64,000 nucleotides of DNA from positions 13,921-77,920 of the forward strand of contig MGKE01000002.1 of NCBI GenBank assembly GCA_001794635.1, given 5' to 3'. Under the pieces are notes generated by a model that worked only from the letters and a program-made list of their open reading frames with translations, ran no database searches and had not been told where the DNA came from. Positions 1,759 to 51,798 of the stretch are shown piece after piece (position 1 is the first letter of the stretch; every line of letters begins with the position of its first letter). A program made the position numbers and the translations under genes. This DNA is from Candidatus Yanofskybacteria bacterium RIFCSPLOWO2_01_FULL_39_28. Lineage in GTDB: Bacteria; Patescibacteriota; Minisyncoccia; 2-02-FULL-40-12; GWA2-44-9.

Positions 1759-3533
1759 TTGTTTCTAAAAGACAAGTTGTTGGATTAGCCATACTTTTTT
1801 CCGCAACAGTTATACTAGCGGTGTTGCCGTTTTGGTATATTGTTCATACTGCCGGCGATTCTTGGCAAGGGATTCTTCCGGCCGGTTACGTTGCTGACAG
1901 CGATTTTTATATACTCCGGATGGTTAAGGGGGCCGACAATTTTCCTTTCGGAAATAATCCGTTCATTATAGAGCAGGCCAAAGATTCAAATCCGGCTTTA
2001 TCTGTCGCCGATTATATCGGATCAATTCCGTATAAAGCCGGATTGAGCATCTTGGGCTCTGTAATTTTTAATGCCATATTTTGGAATCTTGTTTTTGTCT
2101 TCTTGCTTTGGCTACTCTTGAGACAGTTGGGTATAAAAAGCAATTGGTCTTTTTATTTGATTCCGGTGATTTACTTCAATGTGTATGGATCAATGATCCG
2201 ACCGGTTGTAGCTGAAATAGTTTTGCCCTTTTTTGTGTTTTTTCTCTTGATGTTTTTGGTTTGGCTTAAAAAATTCACCAAGCTGAATAGTTTTATTTTT
2301 GCAGTCAGTATTGCTGGTACTTTATATATCTATCCTTATTCGTGGCAGGTTGCTTTTGCGGCTTTGGCGTTTTGTTTTTTGTGGATGTTAAAAAATCAGA
2401 AGTGGTCTGAAGCCAAACTTTTGATTGTAATAATTGGCGGATCTCTGGTTATAGGTTTTCCGGCAGTTTTTTCTATTTATAGCATAACAACTAATCCTTT
2501 ATTTCCTAAATTGCTGGAGTATGTCGGATCTATAAAAACTCATTTGCCTTCGGCACTATCTTTTCAATTGGGACGCTGGATAGTTATAAATTCATTTTTA
2601 TGGTTTATTGCTGTGCGTTTCGTGTCAAAATTAAAAGATGATAAAAACTTTCAGTTTCCCAGGGTTTTTATAATGTCTGTCGGATTCGGTATATTGGCGG
2701 TTTTGATGAGTCCAGTTATAACCGGAAGAGACGGGGCCATTGGCGATCACGTCGGTCGCGAATTATTTTTTTGGCTCTCAATTTCAACAACAACTTTGGC
2801 CTATTTTTTATTTAGCCGTAATGGCTTTTATCAATTAAAATTTTGGAAAAAAGCCGCAATCTTTTTACTTTTAGTTCTTAATTTTATGCCAGTTCTGAAA
2901 CATTCTAAGCGTTCAATTATTCAGCCGTTTAATGCCGATGAAGCCAGGATAGTTGCCGCTCAAGATTATGCCAAACCGATAGAGTGGCTTGATAAGTATG
3001 ACAATAGTCCCAGTGTGGTTTGGGCAGATGGTGATATTAGCAATTATATTCCGACTCATTCTAAATTTTATACATTAGGTTATATAGATGCGATTTATCA
3101 ATATTGGGTTAATAAGTCGGAAATTCAAGAACGCGTCTTATTGTCCATATATTTTCAAGAGATAACTCCAGAGGCGCTTGATAACACAACTCTTACGGGG
3201 AATCGTTATATGCGTCAATTTACTGATTTAGGGTGGAAACTGCGTGTTTGCGGGGTGTTAAATTTTTTAAGGTTTAGTAGTAAATGTTATCCAAAAACAT
3301 CCGGTTTGACTTTTGATGAGCTTGTCTCACAGAAAAATGAAGAACTTCAAAATTTACTAGAAAAAAATAATACCGAAGTCAGGCCATATATCAGCGAACT
3401 GCTTAAAAAATACAACGTTAATTACGCTATCAAAGATCTTGTGGGCGGTAACAAAAATTTTAATATTCAACAATTTAAAAATGCTGAAGAAATATATAAC
3501 GACGGCCGCTTCGTGATCTATGGGTTTAAATAG
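1755..3533 (+). CDS. Polytopic membrane protein with a soluble C-terminal domain; putative GT-C-type glycosyltransferase
   Basis: About 12 hydrophobic segments. An acidic motif, VADSDFYILRM, follows TM1 directly and resembles the first-loop motif of ArnT/PMT/STT3 enzymes. I prefer the ATG at 1755, which makes an ATGA overlap with the upstream stop, over the track start at 1728. Confidence 0.55.
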   Translation: MIVSKRQVVGLAILFSATVILAVLPFWYIVHTAGDSWQGILPAGYVADSDFYILRMVKGADNFPFGNNPFIIEQAKDSNPALSVADYIGSIPYKAGLSILGSVIFNAIFWNLVFVFLLWLLLRQLGIKSNWSFYLIPVIYFNVYGSMIRPVVAEIVLPFFVFFLLMFLVWLKKFTKLNSFIFAVSIAGTLYIYPYSWQVAFAALAFCFLWMLKNQKWSEAKLLIVIIGGSLVIGFPAVFSIYSITTNPLFPKLLEYVGSIKTHLPSALSFQLGRWIVINSFLWFIAVRFVSKLKDDKNFQFPRVFIMSVGFGILAVLMSPVITGRDGAIGDHVGRELFFWLSISTTTLAYFLFSRNGFYQLKFWKKAAIFLLLVLNFMPVLKHSKRSIIQPFNADEARIVAAQDYAKPIEWLDKYDNSPSVVWADGDISNYIPTHSKFYTLGYIDAIYQYWVNKSEIQERVLLSIYFQEITPEALDNTTLTGNRYMRQFTDLGWKLRVCGVLNFLRFSSKCYPKTSGLTFDELVSQKNEELQNLLEKNNTEVRPYISELLKKYNVNYAIKDLVGGNKNFNIQQFKNAEEIYNDGRFVIYGFK

Positions 3534-3602
3534 AGATCTTGTCAGTGCTTAATAATCATGGTATTTATCTCGTATAGACCTTTTAAAATAAGGACGTAAA
3601 TT

Positions 3603-4607
3603 GTGGAGTTTGACCGAAAACGATTGAAGATCTTGCCTCTGGTTGAAAGAGAGAACAAGATGACTTTAGCCGATGTGAAGCGATTAGAAGATTCTATATG
3701 CACAAAAGATCTCAACCCCATTACTAAAATGGACATAGAAATATTAGCCGAACGGCTTATCCAGAGACGCCATCGGGGCCGGCAGGTTATTTGGCTAATG
3801 GGTGCTCATGTCCTGCGTCGGGGCAATTCAAGGTATATAATTGATCTAATGAAACAGGGGTTTCTTACTCATATTGCCTCAAATATGGCAGTTGCTATCC
3901 ACGACTTTGAATTAAGCCATATTGGTGCCACCCTTGAAGATGTTGAATTTTATATCAAAGACGGCCGATTCGGCAACTGGGAAGAGACGGGCCAATATCT
4001 TAACGAAGCTATTTTTACAGGATACAAAGATGGCATTGGTTTGGGCAGGGCGATTGGCCGGATGATAAATTCTTCTAGTAGCCAGGAAATGCCGCATCGG
4101 GAAATCAGTATATTTAACACTGCTTATGAACTTGATATTCCGATCACGGTTCACAAGGGTATCGGCTATGATATTACTGACCAGCATCCGGCTGCTAATT
4201 TTGAAGCAATAGGCAAAACTTCAGGTCTGGATTTTCTTGAGTTTGCTTCTGCCATTTTTCAACTTGAAGATGGCGTGTTCCTCAATCTTGGCTCTTCAGT
4301 TATGGGACCGGAGGTTTATCTTAAAGCATTATCAATGGCTCGCAATGTTGCTGGCCAAGAGGGGAGAGAAATAAAACGCTTTACAACTGCTGTTTTTGAT
4401 ATGGTGTCATTGGGTAATTGGAAAGAAGAACCATCACTGGTTGACTATAAAAAACCGGGGGCCATGTCCGATAGTCGTTATTATTTTCGTCCACTAAAAA
4501 GCGTTCTGGTCAGAACCGTTAAAGACGGCGGCGAAAGTTTTTACATCCAAGGTGACTTTAGTTTAACTGTACCGCTTCTCTGTCAACATTTGAAAGGAGT
4601 GGCATAA
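3603..4607 (+). CDS. Conserved protein with possible deoxyhypusine-synthase-like fold; function unknown
   Basis: GTG start 8 nt after AAGGA. MGAHVLRRGNSRYIIDLMKQGFLTHIASN and the C-terminal GDFSLTVPLL loosely recall DHS-family motifs (SG.R..I..L..., DA.L.FPLL). The assignment is weak. Confidence 0.4.
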   Translation: MEFDRKRLKILPLVERENKMTLADVKRLEDSICTKDLNPITKMDIEILAERLIQRRHRGRQVIWLMGAHVLRRGNSRYIIDLMKQGFLTHIASNMAVAIHDFELSHIGATLEDVEFYIKDGRFGNWEETGQYLNEAIFTGYKDGIGLGRAIGRMINSSSSQEMPHREISIFNTAYELDIPITVHKGIGYDITDQHPAANFEAIGKTSGLDFLEFASAIFQLEDGVFLNLGSSVMGPEVYLKALSMARNVAGQEGREIKRFTTAVFDMVSLGNWKEEPSLVDYKKPGAMSDSRYYFRPLKSVLVRTVKDGGESFYIQGDFSLTVPLLCQHLKGVA

Positions 4608-4611
4608 AAAT

Positions 4612-4655
4612 AAATCCCTCACCAGTTTTTTTAAAAAACTGGTGAGGGATTTTTA
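4612..4655. terminator. Bidirectional intrinsic terminator between convergent genes
   Basis: Perfect 19-bp stem, AAATCCCTCACCAGTTTTT / AAAAACTGGTGAGGGATTT, with a 3-nt loop. A/T runs flank both sides. Confidence 0.8.
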
Positions 4656-11191: not shown

Positions 11192-11205
11192 CCTGATTTT
11201 AAGGG

Positions 11206-11580
11206 CATGGTGTTAATCAAAATCCTCACAAGAGCTTGATTTCTGGGGCACGGCGTAAATTTCTGCTGAAATTTCGCCTTTTACTCGGTTCAGCCAACCT
11301 CCGTAAATCCCCATAAATCAACTCTTATGATGATTTTGTTTTCTGTTGTTAGTATAAATTCAGATAGTCGGCATAGCAGGTATTTTGAGGGATTTTTTAT
11401 TGGGTACAAATGAGTGAAGCCTTTGGCCTATGAGGGGATTTACGGACCGCGACGGCGGGAGTAAAAGATGAAATTTTAGCAAAAATTTACATCGTGCCCC
11501 TCATAGGCTAAGGCTGAACGATTTTATGTCGTGCCCGAAAAATACCTGCTATGCCGACTAGATGGTAATTAGCACCATAC
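11206..11580 (+). repeat. Foldback repeat element, copy 1 (candidate structured ncRNA or MITE)
   Basis: ORF-free. Positions 11209-11335 match 51494-51620 at 125 of 127 positions. Termini pair (GGTGTTAAT / ATTAGCACC), helices are nested, and the 3' half is a diverged inverted copy of the 5' half. Confidence 0.8.
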
Positions 11581-26375: not shown

Positions 26376-26418
26376 TATTATGTTACCACGGGGTGTTTAA
26401 AAGACAAGTTGACACTTT

Positions 26419-27510
26419 TTGACACCATTTGATACCATTAAATATATGATACCCAGAAATAACAAAAAAATAAATCCCGTTAGAAGTAGCCGTGCCGCGG
26501 TCCTCCGGACTCGTGTCTCTGGCGTGAGCGAGACTTCTAACGGGATAAAAGTTTTGGTTGTCGGTGGAGCCGGATATATTGGAGGAGCAGTGACAGAACT
26601 TTTGATTGCAAAAAAGATTCCTTTCAGTGTCTACGACGCGCTGGTTTACGAACATCAATACCTTAAGCCGGTTGATTTTATCTATGGCGACATAAGGGAT
26701 TATAAAAAACTCAAACAGGTTTTGCCAAAATACACCCACGTTATTTGGTTGGCTGCTCTTGTCGGCGATCCCGGTTGCCAAATAGATGAATGGATGACAA
26801 GAGCCGTCAATGTAGAACCGATTAAGTGGCTTGTTAAAAATTACAAAGGCCGAATATTGTTTGCTTCAACCTGTTCTGTTTATGGTAAAAGCGACAAAAT
26901 GCTTGATGAGTCGTCGCCCTTGAATCCGCTATCATTTTACGCAAAAAGCAAAATTGAGGCAGAATCATATTTAGTCAAACATCCTAATACCTTAATATAT
27001 CGCATTGGCACTGCTTTTGGTCTTTCGGACAAGCATTCAAGAGTTCGTTTAGACTTGGCAGTAAATATGTTAAGTTTTAAAGCCGTCAATGAAGGCAAAT
27101 TGACTTATTTTGGAGGAACACAGTGGAGACCTTTTATTCACGTTAAAGATATTGCTATGGCCTTTGTGAACGGCATCAATAACAAGGCAAAAGGAATTCA
27201 CAATCTTAATAGAGAAAATATTAGTATTGGGGACTTGGCTAAAAAAATAGGCAAACTGACAAAATGTAAAATACAAGCAACCGAACACCCGTTTCAAGAC
27301 GAGCGTAACTATCATGTCAGCGCAGATAAAGCTAGAAAAGCCGGACTTCTTAAGGGATTGAAATACAACCTAGAGCATGGCATACAAGACATATCGTCAT
27401 TGGCTAGTTTTTCAAGAGTATCACCGGAAGAATCTACGGTTCATTTTAATGATAAGCACTTAGCTGGCTTGATGAAGGATAATAAAAAAATATGGAAAAA
27501 GCGGATTTAA
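26419..27510 (+). CDS. NAD-dependent sugar epimerase/dehydratase with an atypical N-terminal extension containing a palindromic element
   Basis: Rossmann motif VLVVGGAGYIGG, with STCSVYG and YAKSK catalytic motifs. About 40 residues precede the Rossmann strand and include the element at 26474-26546. The true start is uncertain (TTG 26419, ATG 26446 or TTG 26554). Confidence 0.7.
   Translation: MTPFDTIKYMIPRNNKKINPVRSSRAAVLRTRVSGVSETSNGIKVLVVGGAGYIGGAVTELLIAKKIPFSVYDALVYEHQYLKPVDFIYGDIRDYKKLKQVLPKYTHVIWLAALVGDPGCQIDEWMTRAVNVEPIKWLVKNYKGRILFASTCSVYGKSDKMLDESSPLNPLSFYAKSKIEAESYLVKHPNTLIYRIGTAFGLSDKHSRVRLDLAVNMLSFKAVNEGKLTYFGGTQWRPFIHVKDIAMAFVNGINNKAKGIHNLNRENISIGDLAKKIGKLTKCKIQATEHPFQDERNYHVSADKARKAGLLKGLKYNLEHGIQDISSLASFSRVSPEESTVHFNDKHLAGLMKDNKKIWKKRI
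26474..26546 (+). repeat. GC-rich palindromic element, copy A, about 73 nt, read in frame
   Basis: 14-bp outer stem ATCCCGTTAGAAGT / ACTTCTAACGGGAT enclosing two small hairpins (GGTCC-TCC-GGACT; CTCGTGTC-TCT-GGCGTGAG). Homologous to the reverse complement of 34353-34425. Confidence 0.8.
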
Positions 27511-28442: not shown

Positions 28443-28524
28443 CCTAGCCACTAGCCATTAGTGCCTAGCGACTAGTATAATACAAATTTGACCAATTACT
28501 AGTGGCTAGTCGCTAGTGGCTATA
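28443..28524. repeat. CTAG-rich nested inverted repeat
   Basis: TAGCCACTAG and CTAGCGACTAG units pair with CTAGTCGCTAG and CTAGTGGCTA downstream, with 7 CTAG tetramers in about 80 bp. It spans the gap between the GNAT and synthase genes and the last codons of the synthase. Confidence 0.6.
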
Positions 28525-31534: not shown

Positions 31535-32678
31535 AATTATTTTTAACTAAATTTCCGGCTATATCGCGAATTGGGTTACCTTTTTTATCAAGTCGGAATA
31601 TTTTTTTATTTGTAAACTGGTCAAAGACAACATCTATTTCTTTTTTGGTCAGACTGGAATATTCCATGAACATTTTTACGCCGTAATAAGGATATTTGCC
31701 GTCATATTTTTTTACAAGTTCAAGTCCTTCTTCGCGGTTGATTCGGCCATTTCTTATATCCAAACAAGCGTGGTCAGTTGCTCGACAAAAGCCGTATTTT
31801 AAGAATTTAAGATAATCATGAACACCCTGGTTTGCCTCATCAAGGTTTTCATAATTTGTATATGTGCCTTCAATCGGCCCGTCATTTTTAACATTAAAGC
31901 CGTATTTTTTTATCACTAATTCTGTTTGTTTTCTGGCGTCCCATTTAAAGAAATAGCCCAAGAATAAACCGGTGACACCGACCTCTTTCAAATCCTTGTC
32001 GCTCGGATATTGATAAATAGTAAGATCTTCTTTGGTAATACCGTTAACGCCAAGCATGTCGTTGGTCCTGTTTCCCAAAAGTCCGCCTAATTCTTCAAGC
32101 CAGCGGCGGTCTAGATAATTTTTTTTGGTTGATAAAACCGGGCCGCCGTATTCAAGCTGAACATTCTCGCCCCAGATTATTAAGGGTATTTTGAATTTCA
32201 CTGCTATTTGTACGGGAATTGTGAAAATACCAAGGTGATTGGGCCATTCATTGTCGCCAACCCGCTTAAATGACTCTATGACCATCTTTTTATAAACTTC
32301 GGGATCTTTCTTAAAATACATAAAATCACCGAACTGTCTTATGTTCTCTATATTTTTTTTACCCAGTTCGGTTGTATATGTAGCCTCAAAACACACCAGC
32401 AATGGATGCATTTTATATACAGTCTTCATTACGTGAGCCTGATAATGGCTGTCCTTGCCTCCCGAAACAGGTATTATACAGTCGTAATAGCCGTCTTTAG
32501 AGCGATACTTATTTAAAGTTTTTTCAAACTGTTTTTGTCTAGCTTTCCAGTCAATCCCTTTAATTTTTGCATGCTTTAATTCAGATGACCGGCAGGCATC
32601 GCAAACACCATCCTTATCAAAAAACAAGTCTGGCTTAGTGTTGGGCATTACACATTTTTTACAGTAGATTAATTTCAT
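31524..32678 (-). CDS. N-acetyl sugar amidotransferase (PP-loop ATPase, WbuX/PseA-like)
   Basis: N-terminal zinc-ribbon CKKCVMP...CDAC and PP-loop IPVSGGKDS. Sits directly upstream of the HisH/HisF homologues. Confidence 0.8.
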   Translation of the reverse strand: MKLIYCKKCVMPNTKPDLFFDKDGVCDACRSSELKHAKIKGIDWKARQKQFEKTLNKYRSKDGYYDCIIPVSGGKDSHYQAHVMKTVYKMHPLLVCFEATYTTELGKKNIENIRQFGDFMYFKKDPEVYKKMVIESFKRVGDNEWPNHLGIFTIPVQIAVKFKIPLIIWGENVQLEYGGPVLSTKKNYLDRRWLEELGGLLGNRTNDMLGVNGITKEDLTIYQYPSDKDLKEVGVTGLFLGYFFKWDARKQTELVIKKYGFNVKNDGPIEGTYTNYENLDEANQGVHDYLKFLKYGFCRATDHACLDIRNGRINREEGLELVKKYDGKYPYYGVKMFMEYSSLTKKEIDVVFDQFTNKKIFRLDKKGNPIRDIAGNLVKNNYDN

Positions 32679-34531
32679 TTTGGTAAATGTATTCTTGTTT
32701 CTTTTTTTAGCAAAGTAATTAATTTTTTGTCAGTTTTGTATTTATCGGACAGTTGTCCGTTTATTGTTGGAATATCAGGATTTTTATCAAGAACTTCGTA
32801 GATGTTTTTTATGTTCGGCTCTTTTGAACCGAGTTTGTCGAATAATGCTTTTAACATATCAAGATCTTCTTGAAAATCTAAGGTCAAGCGGTAACTTCTC
32901 ATCCATTCCTTAGGCAGTTCTACGGAGTCAACTTGGAAGATATCTTTGTTAGTTAGCATGTACCAAGTCATGTATTCGGAATGTTTAGCATCGCCAAGAT
33001 AAGCAATAACTTTTTTGAGAGTATTTGTGTTATATATCTCACTAATGAGACCGGTTACATATTCTTTTGGTCCGGTATAATCGTTGCCCTTCTCAAAATG
33101 TTTTTGAAGTAAAAATTCTGCCATCTCATAGGAAACTATCGGACAATCACCGGTAATTCGTATTATTACATCAAGGTTATATTTTTCAGCTACGCCTAAG
33201 TAGCGGAGCATGACATCCTCGGGGTCTCCGGCAAAGAAGCGGATTTTATGTTTTAAGGCATATTTTTTTAGAATCTGATCCTCTTCAATAGTTGAAGTTG
33301 CTAAAATTATCTCATCGGCTGATTTAATTTTTTTGGCGTTCAAAATACATCTTTCAATTGAGGCCAGTCCCTGAATAAGCAAGATGGCTTTATGTTTCAA
33401 TCTGGTTGATTTCATTCGGCAAGCAATGATTACCCCAACCCCGGCTTTTTTTAGACCGCCTTTTGTTATTGGCTTGCCGGGCTTTATATCATTTTTGAGT
33501 ACATATTTTTTCTTCATATATTCTTTAATTTCGGCCACGGTTAATCCTTCTTGTCCGGTTCTTCTAAATTCAAAATTTTTAAAATTAATTACGTCACCAG
33601 CCCGCATGGCGACAGCGGCAATCGGTTTTTCAATCGTTGTTTTGAGATAGTTTGCTTCTTTGTCGGGAATCAACTTGGTTCCCAATATTTTTTCGCATTC
33701 TTTGAGGTTGTATAATAGATGAGAACATTCATCTGGTTCAATTGCCGATTGAAAGTCATATTTTGTTTTATTTCGGTCCAGACAGACATGTTTCTCAATA
33801 TGTCCGGCTCCAGCCAATACTGCGTAAACAGGCACGTCAAAAGCAAGGGGGGATCTGCCATCTACGTGGTCAGCATATGATACTGTGTATTCTGGGAATT
33901 CTTTTCTTAAAATTTGTATTTTACTTATGGTCAGGTCTTCTTTATCTGTTGGATAGGCCTGGAAACCTGCCTGGAGTATAATCTCATTTTTGGTGAAATA
34001 ATTTGATCTAAAGTCGTCCAGTGTTTTTCTTATATTATCAATCTCGCATCCGGCAATATTTAATATAACTTTAATCTTTTTGTCTCCGATTGTTTCAGAA
34101 AGAGACTTCAACACTTTTAAATTGCCTAATACCGATGATTGAAGTTTTATCCCGGTAACTAGCGATATATTATCTTTGAGTACCTCAACACTATAAAGAT
34201 CAAAAACATCTATCCAAACATCAAAACCTTTTTCTTTTGTGTGAACGAATATTTTTTTCCAATTTTGTTTATCAATAAAAAATTTTACGTAAACCTTATA
34301 ATATTCGTAATCTTTTAAGGCAATCTCGTTGTATTTGAACACTTGAAACTTCACCCCGTACGAAGTCGCGCTCGCGCCTTTGGCGCGAGTCCTTCGGACC
34401 GTGGCGCGGCTACTTCGTACGGGGTTAATACCGTTATTGTCGGTACGGGGCAGGGTATTTATTAGGTCATAAATGTATTTCTTTGACCCACCGTGAGAGT
34501 TAGCTAGTTCATAAAGTAAATAAGTTCTCAT
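32675..34531 (-). CDS. Fusion of a NeuB-like synthase domain (plus SAF) with an SpsF/NeuA-type cytidylyltransferase domain; the synthase domain carries a palindromic insertion
   Basis: N-terminal YELANSHGGS...GVKFQVF and SAF-like AMRAGDVINFKNFEFRRTG. C-terminal GVIIACRMKSTRLKHKAIL (CTP_transf_3-like). Residues INPVRSSRATVRRTRAKGASATSY are encoded by the element at 34353-34425. Confidence 0.7.
   Translation of the reverse strand: MRTYLLYELANSHGGSKKYIYDLINTLPRTDNNGINPVRSSRATVRRTRAKGASATSYGVKFQVFKYNEIALKDYEYYKVYVKFFIDKQNWKKIFVHTKEKGFDVWIDVFDLYSVEVLKDNISLVTGIKLQSSVLGNLKVLKSLSETIGDKKIKVILNIAGCEIDNIRKTLDDFRSNYFTKNEIILQAGFQAYPTDKEDLTISKIQILRKEFPEYTVSYADHVDGRSPLAFDVPVYAVLAGAGHIEKHVCLDRNKTKYDFQSAIEPDECSHLLYNLKECEKILGTKLIPDKEANYLKTTIEKPIAAVAMRAGDVINFKNFEFRRTGQEGLTVAEIKEYMKKKYVLKNDIKPGKPITKGGLKKAGVGVIIACRMKSTRLKHKAILLIQGLASIERCILNAKKIKSADEIILATSTIEEDQILKKYALKHKIRFFAGDPEDVMLRYLGVAEKYNLDVIIRITGDCPIVSYEMAEFLLQKHFEKGNDYTGPKEYVTGLISEIYNTNTLKKVIAYLGDAKHSEYMTWYMLTNKDIFQVDSVELPKEWMRSYRLTLDFQEDLDMLKALFDKLGSKEPNIKNIYEVLDKNPDIPTINGQLSDKYKTDKKLITLLKKETRIHLPK
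34353..34425 (-). repeat. GC-rich palindromic element, copy B, about 73 nt, read in frame
   Basis: Outer stem ACCCCGTACGAAGT / ACTTCGTACGGGGT (minus-strand sense) enclosing GGTCC-GAA-GGACT and CTCGCGCC-AAA-GGCGCGAG. Same orientation and reading frame relative to its host gene as copy A. Confidence 0.8.
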
Positions 34532-36836: not shown

Positions 36837-37967
36837 ATGAGCACAAGAGTCGCCATTATAATCCCCACCATGAACCGCCCCGATTTTATATTGAGGCAGC
36901 TTAGATTTTACGAACTAATGAACAGTCCTCATCCGGTTTATTTATCTGATTCTAGTAATGAAGAAAACGCCAGTAAATTAAAAGATGGACTCAAGGAAAT
37001 TAAAAAATTTGATGTTATTTATCAATGGGTTCCTCCGGGGAGAGATAATCTCTATTTATTACTGCCTCTAGTAAAAGAAAAATACTGCATCCAGATGGGA
37101 GATGACGACATTATGATTCCAGAAACAATATCGGAGTGTGCCGACTTTCTTGAATCTCATCCTGGTTACTCAACTTGCTCAGGCAAACAAGTGAATATCC
37201 GTTTTCAGAAAGAGGATTACAATAAACCCTATGGTATTATTGAGCGTCAAACACAGCCATTGGGCAGATCGCTTGAGAACGATAATATGCTCGCAAGGAT
37301 TAAAGAATTCTGGCTTGACTTAACACTCGTTAATTCTAAGGTTTCTTTCAATAATATAGCTTTTATTTGTTTTGTGGTTAGAAGCGTTGAATTAGAAAAA
37401 TCAATTAGAAATATCACCAAGCATTTCTCTTTAACCGAACATATAATGGAGTTTTTATTAGTATCAATACTGGTGATTTCGGGAAAATTTAAAGTACTTG
37501 ATAAATTAATGTATGTAATGCAGGTAAGCGGTAATCGCTATCTTTTTGATTATGACGGCACTACCAGTAATTTTTTAGTATCGCCTGATTTTTATGAAAA
37601 ATGGAAAATTTGCGAAAAAGAATTTTCAGAATTTGTTCAAAAACAAGGAAAATCAGAAAAAGAAAGTTTAAAAATTGTGAAGTGGATCTTTGTCCTTTAT
37701 CTTACTCGTCATTTTCTTCAAGAAAGTGAAGATTGGGCCTCTTTAGGCCTGAAAATAGATCAACCTCAACCCAATCTTGCCGGGAAAACTATTCAGTCAA
37801 GACAAAGTCTGTTTAAAAAAGCAAGATCTTTTGCTTCACGCTCAAAGCTTCTTAGAAGATTGTATTATAAACATCATGTCTCAATTGACGTTACCAAACC
37901 GGAATCAAAATATTATAATGATTTCAAGCTAGTTAAAGACTTCTTAGAAAAAAACGCCAATGGCTAA
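36837..37967 (+). CDS. GT-A-like glycosyltransferase-domain protein, paralogue 2 of 3
   Basis: VAIIIPTMNRPDF and MGDDDIMIP. The C-terminal KPESKYYNDFKLVKDFLE is shared with the other paralogues. Confidence 0.6.
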   Translation: MSTRVAIIIPTMNRPDFILRQLRFYELMNSPHPVYLSDSSNEENASKLKDGLKEIKKFDVIYQWVPPGRDNLYLLLPLVKEKYCIQMGDDDIMIPETISECADFLESHPGYSTCSGKQVNIRFQKEDYNKPYGIIERQTQPLGRSLENDNMLARIKEFWLDLTLVNSKVSFNNIAFICFVVRSVELEKSIRNITKHFSLTEHIMEFLLVSILVISGKFKVLDKLMYVMQVSGNRYLFDYDGTTSNFLVSPDFYEKWKICEKEFSEFVQKQGKSEKESLKIVKWIFVLYLTRHFLQESEDWASLGLKIDQPQPNLAGKTIQSRQSLFKKARSFASRSKLLRRLYYKHHVSIDVTKPESKYYNDFKLVKDFLEKNANG

Positions 37968-39063
37968 AGTCGCTATTATAATTCCTACCATGAACCGTCC
38001 CGACTTTATGTTGAGGCAGCTTGAGTTTTATGAACTAATGAATAGCCCGCACCCGGTTTACATTTTAGACAGCAGCAATCCGGAGAATGCCGAAAAACTA
38101 AAGAACGGCGTAGAAAAATATAAAAATTTAAATGTAGTTTATAAATGGTTTCCACCCGGTAATGATTATGAATATCAACTATTGCCTCTGGTAAAAGAAA
38201 AGTATTGTATACAAATTGGAGACGATGATCTTATTTTCCCCAGTACGATTTCTGAGTGTGCAGATTTTTTAGAATCTTATCCCGATTATGCTACCTGCGC
38301 AGGTAAGCAGGTAAATGTTAGATTTAGAAAACATGATCGTATTAAACCCTACGGTATTATTGAGCATCAAACACGGCCATTAGGCAGATCGATTGAAGAT
38401 GAAAATATGCTTGTAAGGGCAAAAAACTTCTGGCTTGATCAGACTTTTCTCGGTCTTTCTGTTAGAAGGATTGAGACAGAAAGAGCGATCCGTAATATTA
38501 CGAAAAACTTTTTTATGATGGGTGATATGACAGAATTTTTGATAATGTCTGTTCTGATAACTTCCGGAAAATCTAAATCACTTGATAAATTAGGACAGGT
38601 TATGCAATTAAGCGACCTCCGATCTTTTGATCACGGCCTTGTTGAAGATTTTTTATTGTATTCGCATATCGTTGAAGAATGGAAAATTTGCCTAGATGGA
38701 TTTTCTGAAATTCTGACGGAAAAAGGATTATCAAAAAAAGAAAGCCAAGATGCTATTAAGGGTATATTCATTGTTTTTCTTTACCAACAATATACCACAG
38801 AAAGATTTTGGCTAGCCATTGGCAACAAAAAATCCTCATTTGCATGGCCTGACCAGTTAAAGCAAGATCTGTCAAATACTTTTTCAAAACAAGGGACGAA
38901 GGGATTATTTAAAAAGATTAGGCACAGGGCTTCTCATTTGCCATTTCTTAGAAGTATCTACTACAAATTTAACCCTCCTGATTATGTTGATAAACCAGAA
39001 TCAAAATACTTTGATGATTTCAAAGTAGTTAAGGACTTTCTGGAGGGAAGAGCTAATAAATAA
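37960..39063 (+). CDS. GT-A-like glycosyltransferase-domain protein, paralogue 3 of 3
   Basis: VAIIIPTMNRPDF and IGDDDLIFP. The 5' region is about 85% identical in nucleotide sequence to paralogue 2. There is an 8-nt overlap with paralogue 2. Confidence 0.6.
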   Translation: MAKVAIIIPTMNRPDFMLRQLEFYELMNSPHPVYILDSSNPENAEKLKNGVEKYKNLNVVYKWFPPGNDYEYQLLPLVKEKYCIQIGDDDLIFPSTISECADFLESYPDYATCAGKQVNVRFRKHDRIKPYGIIEHQTRPLGRSIEDENMLVRAKNFWLDQTFLGLSVRRIETERAIRNITKNFFMMGDMTEFLIMSVLITSGKSKSLDKLGQVMQLSDLRSFDHGLVEDFLLYSHIVEEWKICLDGFSEILTEKGLSKKESQDAIKGIFIVFLYQQYTTERFWLAIGNKKSSFAWPDQLKQDLSNTFSKQGTKGLFKKIRHRASHLPFLRSIYYKFNPPDYVDKPESKYFDDFKVVKDFLEGRANK

Positions 39064-45885: not shown

Positions 45886-46695
45886 TCAAATTTGCAAGTC
45901 TTTCAATTCTTTAAGCACTTCTTCAGCAATCTCAAGTGTGCTTTTATTAAAGCCAGTTGATACACTTCTAATTTTATCGGTGTTCATTCGGTGAACGTTA
46001 TGAATAAAACTGCCGAATTTTGGCTGACTGCCTAATGCTTCGGCGATTTCTCTCAGAGTGGCATTTTGTGTGGAACCGGCGTTAAATATTCCGGTGATGT
46101 TTTGGGTCAAAGCTAGTTCTATAAATTCTTTTATTTGAGACATACTAACAAGATTAAAACTAGATTCAGGGCTTAAGGTAAGGGGGCTTGGATCGTGGCA
46201 CAGGATTTTCATTATGTTAGTGGCTGGTCTTGTTGTAGGGCCGACTATTGAGACGCAACGTAGAATGAGTGGCGATTTGGAATTCTGGAGTACCACTTGT
46301 TCTGCTAATAACTTGAATAGTCCATAAAGATAATAGGTATGATGAACTGGGCAAGAGGTCTCTGGAAAATTTGGTACATCCGTTTCTTTACTTTCGCGAT
46401 ATGGGTCTGGATAAACTGCTGGCGATGAAATGTAAACGAATAAGCCGTGGGGGATTTGAGTTAATTGTTTCGTTAGCTCAATATTTGACTGGTAGTAAGG
46501 CCATAAGTCATTCGGCGGTATAACATTGCGGGTATCGGCGGCGCAGTGAACTATGGCATCGTAATAGTTTTGGCCATGACGATTTATTTCGTTTTTCAAG
46601 TTAGCCCGGTAAAAAGGCTTGCCTCGTAATCCACCCAGTAAATATTGGCCCAAACCGGATGATGTTCCGGTTACAAGGAACTTTGGTTTTGTCAT
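45886..46695 (-). CDS. NAD(P)-binding Rossmann protein (atypical extended SDR), paralogue A
   Basis: FLVTGTSSGLGQYL glycine-rich motif. About 60% identical to 47805..48596. Confidence 0.6.
   Translation of the reverse strand: MTKPKFLVTGTSSGLGQYLLGGLRGKPFYRANLKNEINRHGQNYYDAIVHCAADTRNVIPPNDLWPYYQSNIELTKQLTQIPHGLFVYISSPAVYPDPYRESKETDVPNFPETSCPVHHTYYLYGLFKLLAEQVVLQNSKSPLILRCVSIVGPTTRPATNIMKILCHDPSPLTLSPESSFNLVSMSQIKEFIELALTQNITGIFNAGSTQNATLREIAEALGSQPKFGSFIHNVHRMNTDKIRSVSTGFNKSTLEIAEEVLKELKDLQI
46082..46169. repeat. 88-bp tract identical to 48001..48088
   Basis: Base-by-base comparison found no differences across 88 bp, while the flanking paralogous sequence is clearly diverged. Confidence 0.85.
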
Positions 46696-47818: not shown

Positions 47819-48596
47819 TTGATAATCTTTCAGCTTCAATTTTTGCTATTTCAAGAGTGCTTTTGTTGAAATCTATAGAAATTTCTCTGATCTTTCTGGT
47901 ATCCATCTGGGGTACATTAAAGGTGAAATTACCGAATTTTGGTTGGCTACCCACGGCTTTGGCTATTTCTCCAAGTGTCGCGTTTTGGGTGGAACCGGCA
48001 TTAAATATTCCGGTGATGTTTTGGGTCAAAGCTAGTTCTATAAATTCTTTTATTTGAGACATACTAACAAGATTAAAACTAGATTCAGTGCTTAAGGTGA
48101 GTTGGGTTGGGTCATTTCGGAGTATTCTGGCAATGTTTGTCGGCCTGCTTGTCGGCCCGACAATTGTTACGCAGCGAAGAATCAGGGATGAGCGTGTGTT
48201 CTGGCTGACCATTTTTTCGGTTAGAAGTTTGAATAGTCCATAAAGTCCGTAGAGGGGCGGGTCGTGGGGCAGGGTAATAATATCGGATTCGGAATTTAAT
48301 CGGTACAGGTCAGGATATACAGCGGACGAAGAGATGAATACGAATAAGTGGTGAGGAATTTGGAGCAATTGTTTCGTAAGTTCTATGTGCGACTGATAAT
48401 ATGTCAATAATTCATCTGACGTGATACTGTTTCTGGCATCAGTTGCGCAATGGATAATACAATCATAGAAAGTATTTTTGTGGCGGACTATTTCCAGGGG
48501 ATCTATTCTTTGGAAAGGTACGGCTCCAAGCTCTTTGACCAAATAGCGGCCAAGGCCGGATGAAGTTCCAGAAATAAGAATTTTAGCCTTGTTCAT
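47805..48596 (-). CDS. NAD(P)-binding Rossmann protein (atypical extended SDR), paralogue B
   Basis: ILISGTSSGLGRYL. Shares the 88-bp identical tract with 45886..46695. Confidence 0.6.
   Translation of the reverse strand: MNKAKILISGTSSGLGRYLVKELGAVPFQRIDPLEIVRHKNTFYDCIIHCATDARNSITSDELLTYYQSHIELTKQLLQIPHHLFVFISSSAVYPDLYRLNSESDIITLPHDPPLYGLYGLFKLLTEKMVSQNTRSSLILRCVTIVGPTSRPTNIARILRNDPTQLTLSTESSFNLVSMSQIKEFIELALTQNITGIFNAGSTQNATLGEIAKAVGSQPKFGNFTFNVPQMDTRKIREISIDFNKSTLEIAKIEAERLSTKEV
48001..48088. repeat. 88-bp tract identical to 46082..46169
   Basis: See the partner feature at 46082..46169. The tract encodes SSFNLVSMSQIKEFIELALTQNITGIFNAG. Confidence 0.85.
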
Positions 48597-51477: not shown

Positions 51478-51490
51478 CCGAATAATCGCG

Positions 51491-51784
51491 CGTGGTGCTA
51501 ATCAAAATCCTCACAAGAGCTTGATTTCTGGGGCACGGCGTAAATTTCTGCTGAAATTTCGCCTTTTACTCGGTTCAGCCAACCTCCGTAAATCCCCATA
51601 AATCAACTCTTATGAGGATTTAGTCTTTACCTGTGTCTATATCAATTAATCTGGTCAGTATAGTAGGTATTTTGAGGGATTTACGGACCGCGACGGCGGG
51701 AGTAAAAGACAAAATTCTAGCAAGAATTTATGTCGTGCCCGAAAAATACCTGCTATGCTGACCAGATGGTAATTAGCACTATAT
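51491..51784 (+). repeat. Foldback repeat element, copy 2 (candidate structured ncRNA or MITE)
   Basis: Positions 51494-51620 match 11209-11335 at 125 of 127 positions. Termini pair (GGTGCTAAT / ATTAGCACT). About 81 nt shorter than copy 1. Confidence 0.8.
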
Positions 51785-51798
51785 GCTACTATCAATTA

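Follow-up and report, generated by a model that had tools for sequence, protein, structure and literature searches.

A GC-rich palindrome lies close to the 5' end of a sugar epimerase gene in a 64,000-nt stretch of Candidatus Yanofskybacteria DNA (contig MGKE01000002.1; the whole stretch is referred to below as the window). We conclude, at a probability of roughly 85%, that this palindrome is a non-autonomous DNA transposon, a hairpin MITE (miniature transposable element with inverted repeats) belonging to a family of the CPR (Candidate Phyla Radiation), also called Patescibacteria, and that it inserted at codon 9/10 of the epimerase gene. Comparison of filled and empty sites shows that the insertion duplicated the 4-bp target TAAA, that the 71 nt of the element and the 4 bp together make 25 codons, and that a stop-free frame leaves the epimerase gene intact. 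A preliminary description of the palindrome had offered two readings, a translated N-terminal tail and a structured 5' leader; neither took it for a mobile insertion that duplicates its target site or for a member of a large family. The features at the locus are:

26446..27510, plus strand: NAD-dependent sugar epimerase/dehydratase of the SDR family, the host gene (PF01370, E = 1.7e-27; the N-termini of orthologues align to ATG 26446)
26475..26545, plus strand: 71-nt hairpin MITE, copy 2 (13-bp outer stem including the terminal T/A pair, and three inner helices)
26471..26474, plus strand: target-site duplication, left TAAA (from the filled/empty site comparison)
26546..26549, plus strand: target-site duplication, right TAAA (from the same comparison)

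The palindrome and the filled and empty sites

The palindrome had been placed at 26474-26546, and it is indeed there. The 14-nt arms ATCCCGTTAGAAGT (26474-26487) and ACTTCTAACGGGAT (26533-26546) are fully complementary, with a GC-rich interior between them; the GC content of the window is just 38.6%. With up to two mismatches allowed, the 14-mer occurs three times in the window against 0.4 expected, a number that none of 100 shuffles reached. The predicted fold of the sense strand has an energy of -37.2 kcal/mol, compared with -21.2 +/- 3.1 for shuffled sequences (z = -5.2); the antisense strand folds more weakly, at -31.6 kcal/mol. The boundaries of the mobile unit were refined to 26475-26545, i.e., 71 nt, and the outermost A and T of the longer interval belong to the two target-site TAAA copies, as their inner bases. 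In the host frame the element encodes ..NPVRSSRAAVLRTRVSGVSETSNG.., in the open reading frame (ORF) context INPVRSSRAAVLRTRVSGVSETSNGI.

The element falls between codon 9 (ATA) and codon 10 (AAA). When the epimerase ORF from ATG 26446 was used as query, many orthologues of 324-329 aa with 76-87% identity were found that cover only about 90% of it, and in the alignment their gap is exactly the 25 residues encoded by the element. At the DNA level, alignment of the window with two element-free loci, L047 and L048, gave an exact 75-nt (25-codon) insertion consisting of the 71-nt element and the duplicated TAAA. The empty sites have a single ATAAAAG and read ...AAAAAAATAAAAGT..., whereas the window has TAAA-element-TAAA and reads ...AAAAAAATAAA[TCCCG...CGGGA]TAAAAGT.... 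The element has most of the features by which MITEs are recognized: it is short and lacks a transposase gene, it has terminal inverted repeats (13 bp, perfect) and a target-site duplication, it is multicopy and dispersed, and it is polymorphic for presence and absence.

The window holds another copy, as had been claimed, which was found at 34354-34424 by a scan for GC-rich islands together with short-word BLAST:

34354..34424, minus strand: 71-nt hairpin MITE, copy 1 (gene-strand flanks TTAA and TGAA)
32675..34531, minus strand: 618-aa fusion of a NeuB-like synthase with a cytidylyltransferase, host of copy 1 (PF03102, PF02348)

The two copies have opposite genomic orientations but the same orientation and frame relative to their hosts, copy 1 encoding ..NPVRSSRATVRRTRAKGASATSYG.. 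in the ORF context INPVRSSRATVRRTRAKGASATSYGV. Between the copies, perfect pairing of the outer stem is kept through three compensated differences. Orthologues of the NeuB-like protein, 592-596 aa long, lack the stretch that corresponds to copy 1. For both host genes the closest named homologues are from Candidatus Yanofskybacteria, and one protein of the window recurs unchanged on contigs of Rifle-type groundwater metagenomes (for example JGI 3300002502), in keeping with a Parcubacteria/CPR source.

The translation start of the epimerase gene

The N-terminus of the epimerase is atypical, as previously described, in that the Pfam Epimerase domain begins only at residue 45 counted from TTG 26419, or residue 36 from ATG 26446. 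Between the element and the Rossmann motif there is no ATG, also as described. The element-free orthologues begin MISGNNKKIKVLVVGG, MVSRNNKKIKVLVVGG and MIRNSQKINVLVVGG, and the window reads MIPRNNKKI-[25 aa]-KVLVVGG. Their conserved N-terminus, MxxxNxKKI-KVLVVGG, starts at the same ATG as the window's 26446; this ATG is invariant among the window, L047 and L048, and codons 2-9 differ synonymously. These alignments indicate that the epimerase gene retains its ancestral start, ATG 26446. In P0024 (locus L046), an orthologue of 70% identity, the same site is filled by a copy in the opposite orientation that has diverged considerably but remains open and 71 nt in length, and this argues for selection that keeps the frame through the element. 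The same locus contains a further diverged, 72-nt copy at 2550-2621, which overlaps the epimerase gene at its 3' end together with the gap that precedes the next gene; the window counterparts of these two genes overlap each other.

Of the two readings previously offered, then, the translated tail stood, since the orthologues share the upstream ATG without the 25 residues, the difference is exactly 75 nt, and the copies of the family discussed below are stop-free and follow a multiple-of-three (3n) rule. In the other reading, transcription would start just upstream of the element, the hairpin would lie in the 5' untranslated region, and translation would begin at TTG 26554. Several details of the locus are compatible with such a leader. 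The two upstream starts, ATG 26446 and TTG 26419, have no Shine-Dalgarno sequence, as had been noted. The TTGACA hexamers reported at 26409 and 26419 are both present, and the one at 26419 could, together with an ATATAT/TATATG box near 26443, put a transcription start downstream of the ATG. Further, one homologue, P0063, begins MVLIVGG. There is, however, a better promoter match slightly upstream:

26409..26438, plus strand: promoter-like site TTGACA-18 nt-TGnTACCAT (10/12 hexamer matches plus the TG extension)

The motif is also kept in the element-free locus L047. Transcription from this site would begin at about 26445, and ATG 26446 may then be leaderless, which would account for the missing Shine-Dalgarno sequence. 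The preliminary description had itself named orthologues that lack the element and start at the same upstream codon as evidence against a leader, and because such orthologues were found, with synonymous changes in codons 2-9, we reject it. Moreover, the target-site duplication marks the element as an insertion and not a conserved leader, most copies of the family lie mid-gene, and the L046 copy at this site has stayed open and 71 nt long despite its divergence. Rfam gave no gathering-score match anywhere in the window, and on the element only a chance match to isrC (E = 5.3); scans for tRNA and tmRNA genes, and for terminators around the epimerase element, found none. In sum, a 5' leader is very unlikely.

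A family of hairpin elements in CPR genomes

To define the family, genomes were scanned with the exact pattern, one genome per species, and 41 stretches matched. Matches with the full palindrome came from Saccharibacteria, Yanofsky-, Nomura- and Sungiibacteria and other Patescibacteria metagenome-assembled genomes (MAGs), and from a few MAGs labelled only 'bacterium'. GC-rich matches outside the CPR (Pigmentiphaga, Phenylobacterium, Magnetospirillum and others) lacked the palindrome and were set aside as chance; all genuine copies that come from a named genome belong to the CPR. The Saccharibacteria MAG binchicken_co341_27 has at least five copies, and several copies were also seen in other single MAGs. 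Copy-rich genomes include the Saccharibacteria MAG CAYPFS01 and the Yanofskybacteria MAG JACPNJ01. A scan of metagenome contigs with the pattern CCCGTTAGA-N(28-56)-TCTAACGGG gave at least 120 loci, and a scan of viral contigs 10. The copies in IMG/VR (L176, L177, L179) are mostly intergenic, are not of 3n length, and provided no lead to a vector; several IMG/VR copies have CCTCCTT beside one arm, i.e., AAGGAGG on the opposite strand, which resembles a ribosome-binding site.

Family statistics were taken from the 172 distinct copies of 48-75 nt sampled in this way. The termini CCCGTTAGA/TCTAACGGG are common to all subfamilies. Lengths peak at 50, 53, 59, 62, 65, 68, 71 and 74 nt, each of which becomes a multiple of 3 when the 4-bp duplication is added; for the whole sample, length plus 4 is divisible by 3 in 115 of 172 copies, against an expectation of one third (binomial p = 3e-19). 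Where the flanking sequence is open for at least 30 codons on each side, 53 copies obey the 3n rule and 2 break it (Fisher p = 1e-9). All four flanking bases are identical in 100 of the 172, and the logo of the target is T(88%)-N-N-A(85%). Copies in ORFs are read as CCC GTT AGA (PVR...) in 44 cases and as CCG TTA GA. (PLE...) in 26; the frame with a TAG/TAA stop in the arms is never used. A looser search for arms in the scanned loci turned up the size classes 50, 101 and 125 nt, with the same termini and unrelated interiors.

The hosts are ordinary, conserved and in many cases essential proteins, among them UvrD/PcrA and GyrA (two cases each), NusA, UvrA, HrcA, RtcB and a CCA-adding enzyme, as well as a dihydrolipoamide-dehydrogenase-type flavoprotein, transporters and glycosyltransferases, and the insert frequently lies inside a Pfam domain match of the host protein. 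In one locus (L043 4405-7998) a GyrA gene contains an intein (Pfam Intein_splicing) as well as a 71-nt MITE, the latter in the C-terminal propeller region.

The 3n rule and the avoidance of stops bear on whether the element is translated at all. It could in principle be skipped, either by ribosome bypass as in T4 gene 60 and the mitochondrial byp elements, with the duplicated AUA serving for take-off and landing, or by excision from the mRNA. Known mitochondrial bypass acts on GC-rich hairpin insertions in AT-rich genomes; the present element, a GC-rich hairpin in an AT-rich genome, resembles such a substrate, and its target duplication leaves an identical ATAAA on either side of a strong hairpin. 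Skipping, on the other hand, would impose neither a 53 to 2 preference for 3n lengths among ORF copies nor the complete avoidance of the stop frame. Programmed bypass is recognized by an untranslatable gap between matched codons, and the gap is open and 3n both here and in 53 of the 55 ORF copies. On these grounds bypass and RNA excision are rejected as exceedingly improbable.

The encoded peptide

The predicted tryptic peptides derived from the element are VSGVSETSNGIK for the epimerase and GASATSYGVK for the NeuB-like protein. The NeuB-like protein was modelled well (AlphaFold, 35-sequence alignment; mean predicted local distance difference test score, pLDDT, 89.6). Residues 32-54, placed between a helix at 17-26 and a strand at 58-64, are the only low-confidence segment (pLDDT below 50) of the model, and they closely match the stretch encoded by the element. 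The epimerase model was poor (mean pLDDT 57); residues 1-31 are unstructured and of low confidence and the first strand is at 36-39, but the low overall confidence makes this weak evidence for a disordered N-terminus. The models thus suggest that the host proteins tolerate the insert as a disordered loop or tail.

It might be asked whether the 25-residue Arg/Ser-rich segment is a domesticated module that has acquired a function, for example in targeting or interaction. In favor of this, the two window copies are read in one and the same frame and encode similar peptides, and some sites bear elements in several lineages. The peptide, however, is wholly different according to orientation and subfamily, the segment is predicted to be disordered, and it is missing in most close orthologues. 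A Pfam search of the encoded peptides, in both frames and both orientations, gave no matches. Taken together these observations make domestication highly improbable.

Structure at the DNA or the RNA level

A covariation test was done with 28 copies of the 71-nt class and a model of four helices, namely the outer stem of 13 bp, a helix of 5 bp and two hairpins, one of 4 bp and one of 7 bp. In this model 98.5% of cells are paired and 10 pairs have compensatory double changes; none of 500 shuffles scored as high, and in slid controls pairing fell to 30-44%. The pairing, with covariation beyond that of the shuffles, argues that the structure is maintained. Whether one strand is favored was examined in the 70 copies in ORFs. 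In 34 of these the stronger fold is that of the sense strand and in 32 that of the antisense strand (Wilcoxon p = 0.84); the G:U pairs number 65 in sense and 77 in antisense. Given this symmetry in fold energies and G:U counts, the structure is not specific to the sense strand, and selection on sense-strand RNA was ruled out as an explanation for it.

The inner hairpin CTCGTGTC/GGCGTGAG of the epimerase copy needs three G:U pairs. This need had been correctly noted, and two accounts of it had been proposed, RNA-level structure and C-to-T decay. The first is not borne out, there being no strand bias across the family. Decay fared better: on its coding strand the copy carries four C-to-T changes against the class consensus (alignment positions 19, 40, 42 and 51), and the G:U pairs are best explained by such decay.

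A broader proposal is that the hairpin is selected in the coding region as a regulatory or stabilizing RNA structure, acting through ribosome pausing, as an RNase site or in mRNA protection. The fold is very stable, compensatory changes preserve the inner helices, and the sense strand of the epimerase copy pairs better than its antisense strand. But elements occur in ORFs in both orientations with the symmetric energies and G:U counts given above, the interiors of the subfamilies are unrelated and only the termini are common, presence and absence vary among close orthologues, and the four C-to-T changes fit decay in a 38.6% GC genome. An RNA-level role is accordingly unlikely.

How the element may have inserted and persisted

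Under the transposon interpretation, insertion would occur by cut-and-paste or copy-in, catalyzed by a transposase of the DDE type, acting in trans and cutting TNNA with a 4-bp stagger. Ribosomes would read through the hairpin, adding an Arg/Ser-rich, probably disordered 25-residue segment before the first Rossmann strand, and the element would be selfish or neutral in the epimerase gene, not regulatory. The insertions that survive selection would be only those that preserve the frame, are free of stops and lie in tolerant loops or termini; the elements would persist there because gene-dense CPR genomes offer few other landing places.

All loci were searched for a parent element, with unpaired arms and with CCC...GGG inverted repeats 0.6-3.5 kb apart. 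The apparent long elements proved to be pairs of separate MITEs, and the two candidate regions examined had no transposase ORF. In L095, a HigB/HigA-like toxin-antitoxin pair at 2818-4232 lies between hairpin MITEs with the same TTTA flanks, possibly a composite mobile unit.

Some observations weigh against the interpretation as a translated, purely selfish transposon. The approximately 1.17 Mb of fetched loci yielded neither an autonomous element nor a transposase with these termini, and the transposition mechanism is accordingly deduced solely from the duplication and the inverted termini. The covarying inner helices are not obviously needed by a purely selfish transposon with inverted terminal repeats; palindrome-templated repair and a requirement for the hairpin in transposition are possible explanations. 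The metagenome sample, at least 120 loci, comes from a pattern that demanded perfect 9-nt arms and an interior of 28-56 nt. We infer the translation of the 25 element codons in the epimerase gene from sequence. Finally, a start at TTG 26554 would give MVVGGAGYIGG, to be compared with the N-terminus of P0063, a distant homologue, and so short an epimerase N-terminus is structurally possible.

Recurrent use of the same sites

The epimerase site is filled in two lineages in opposite orientations. The loop of the NeuB-like protein appears to be a hot spot, with different inserts in different orthologues (L181, L182, L183). One orthologue has an element of another subfamily, CCCGTTAGAGG..., about 12 nt upstream of the site of copy 1; another has a palindrome whose arms are different (CCCCCACACC..., CCCCCACACCAAACGAACG...), placed at the same TTAA as copy 1; and a third has a 30-nt GC-rich insert encoding RLRQGFGGQA. 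In the UvrD/PcrA genes of two Nomurabacteria there are elements of 71 nt (L018 2435-2505) and 50 nt (L023 5174-5223) with unrelated interiors. They share the right-hand junction, just before KLMTVHA, which suggests replacement or re-insertion at one site. More generally, the reuse of sites could reflect a scarcity of tolerant sites, a target hot spot, or replacement of a resident element through the shared arms.

Comparison with known systems

The closest analogues are the Rickettsia palindromic elements (RPEs; Ogata et al. 2000), described as selfish palindromic DNA that lies in frame in protein-coding genes (PMC10969869). Both are short palindromes, scattered through reduced genomes, that sit in frame in unrelated, often essential genes and are read as additional segments which the protein fold tolerates. 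RPEs are about 100-150 nt long in the same account, whereas the CPR elements are 50-74 nt and rarely 101-125. The hosts differ, Rickettsia in one case and a CPR phylum in the other, and the sequences are unrelated as far as can be judged, so that the CPR elements are treated as analogues of the RPEs and not as members. In contrast to RPEs, inverted termini of 13 bp are clear in the CPR elements, which also have a TNNA duplication of 4 bp and a ladder of lengths in which length + 4 = 3n.

With bacterial MITEs such as Correia, RUP, ERIC and the Coxiella QMITEs, the CPR elements share a non-coding nature, inverted repeats, duplications, multiple copies, hairpins and an occasional intragenic position (PMC10969869, PMC5896051). 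Most of those families are mainly intergenic, and several have a parent insertion sequence (PMC10969869, PMC5896051); most CPR copies in long enough sequence, in contrast, are inside ORFs, and no parent element was found in the fetched loci. REP/BIME sequences, which are mobilized by RAYT, are likewise GC-rich palindromic stem-loops in many copies (PMC3733652). But REPs are 20-40 bp and extragenic, have a GTAG/CGTC head and lack a target duplication (PMC3733652), and the CPR elements are intragenic with duplications.

A lead to the mobilizing enzyme may come from piggyBac and from IS1380, whose transposases serve as an outgroup for piggyBac (PMC10813416). The piggyBac end CCCTAGAAAGATAG (PMC7351741) resembles the end of the CPR element, CCCGTTAGAAGTAG, a likeness that could be due to chance. 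The CCC...GGG termini (CCC(C/T)... in the CPR elements) are reminiscent of piggyBac, and so is the 4-bp duplication framed by T and A, which is TTAA in piggyBac. The CPR target is TNNA and not strictly TTAA, the latter accounting for 3 of 100 perfect duplications. The intact empty sites in close orthologues are such as seamless excision of the piggyBac type would leave. By this analogy, kinship with piggyBac/IS1380 is a lead.

Searches of the literature on CPR bacteria with MITE, palindromic or in-frame insertions, or with the terminal sequence, found no earlier description, within an incomplete coverage. The family is large, colonizes protein-coding genes of these ultrasmall bacteria, and is apparently undescribed so far; its notable features are the 3n-4 length ladder and the breadth of its essential hosts. 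We give about an even chance to a wider proposal, namely that CPR/Patescibacteria carry a large, apparently undescribed superfamily of GC-rich hairpin MITEs with CCCGTTAGA termini, a 4-bp TNNA duplication and size classes tuned to 3n which allow life in essential genes (gyrA, uvrD, nusA, uvrA), that permissive sites are repeatedly reoccupied, in either orientation or with a replaced interior, and that the mobilizing enzyme may be a transposase like that of piggyBac/IS1380, with seamless excision.

For annotation, the insertion accounts for the start and the odd N-terminus of the epimerase gene. Such insertions inflate the apparent divergence of proteins and can mislead gene callers and domain searches; they also mark tolerant loops of essential enzymes and could act as strain markers. 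A mobile hairpin family would be reshaping proteins throughout a bacterial radiation that is very large and still little understood, and selfish DNA inside protein-coding genes, previously a Rickettsia curiosity, would have a second, independent and much larger example, in which clear target duplications make the mechanism testable. The palindrome is of greater interest as an entry to CPR-wide in-frame hairpin transposons than as a regulator of the epimerase gene.

Other repeats in the window

An unrelated intergenic repeat of about 300-375 nt is present in two copies, at 11205-11580 and 51490-51785, in which the identity of blocks reaches 96%. Its inverted arms, TAGTCGGCATAGCAGGTATTTTGAGGG and CCCGAAAAATACCTGCTATGCCGACTA, are 27 nt long, and it gave no Rfam gathering match; two additional internal segments, of 46 and 37 nt, are present in the copy at 11.2 kb. 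A perfect palindrome of 20+20 nt with a 1-nt gap, AAATCCCTCACCAGTTTTTT / AAAAAACTGGTGAGGGATTT, lies at 4612-4652 and is a possible bidirectional terminator. At 28445-28522, in the gap between two minus-strand genes, there is an imperfect 37-nt inverted repeat of TAGCCACTAG-like words. The sugar-biosynthesis cluster contains tandem paralogous segments that are 70-77% identical (45926-46329 / 47845-48245 and 36848-37147 / 37968-38267).

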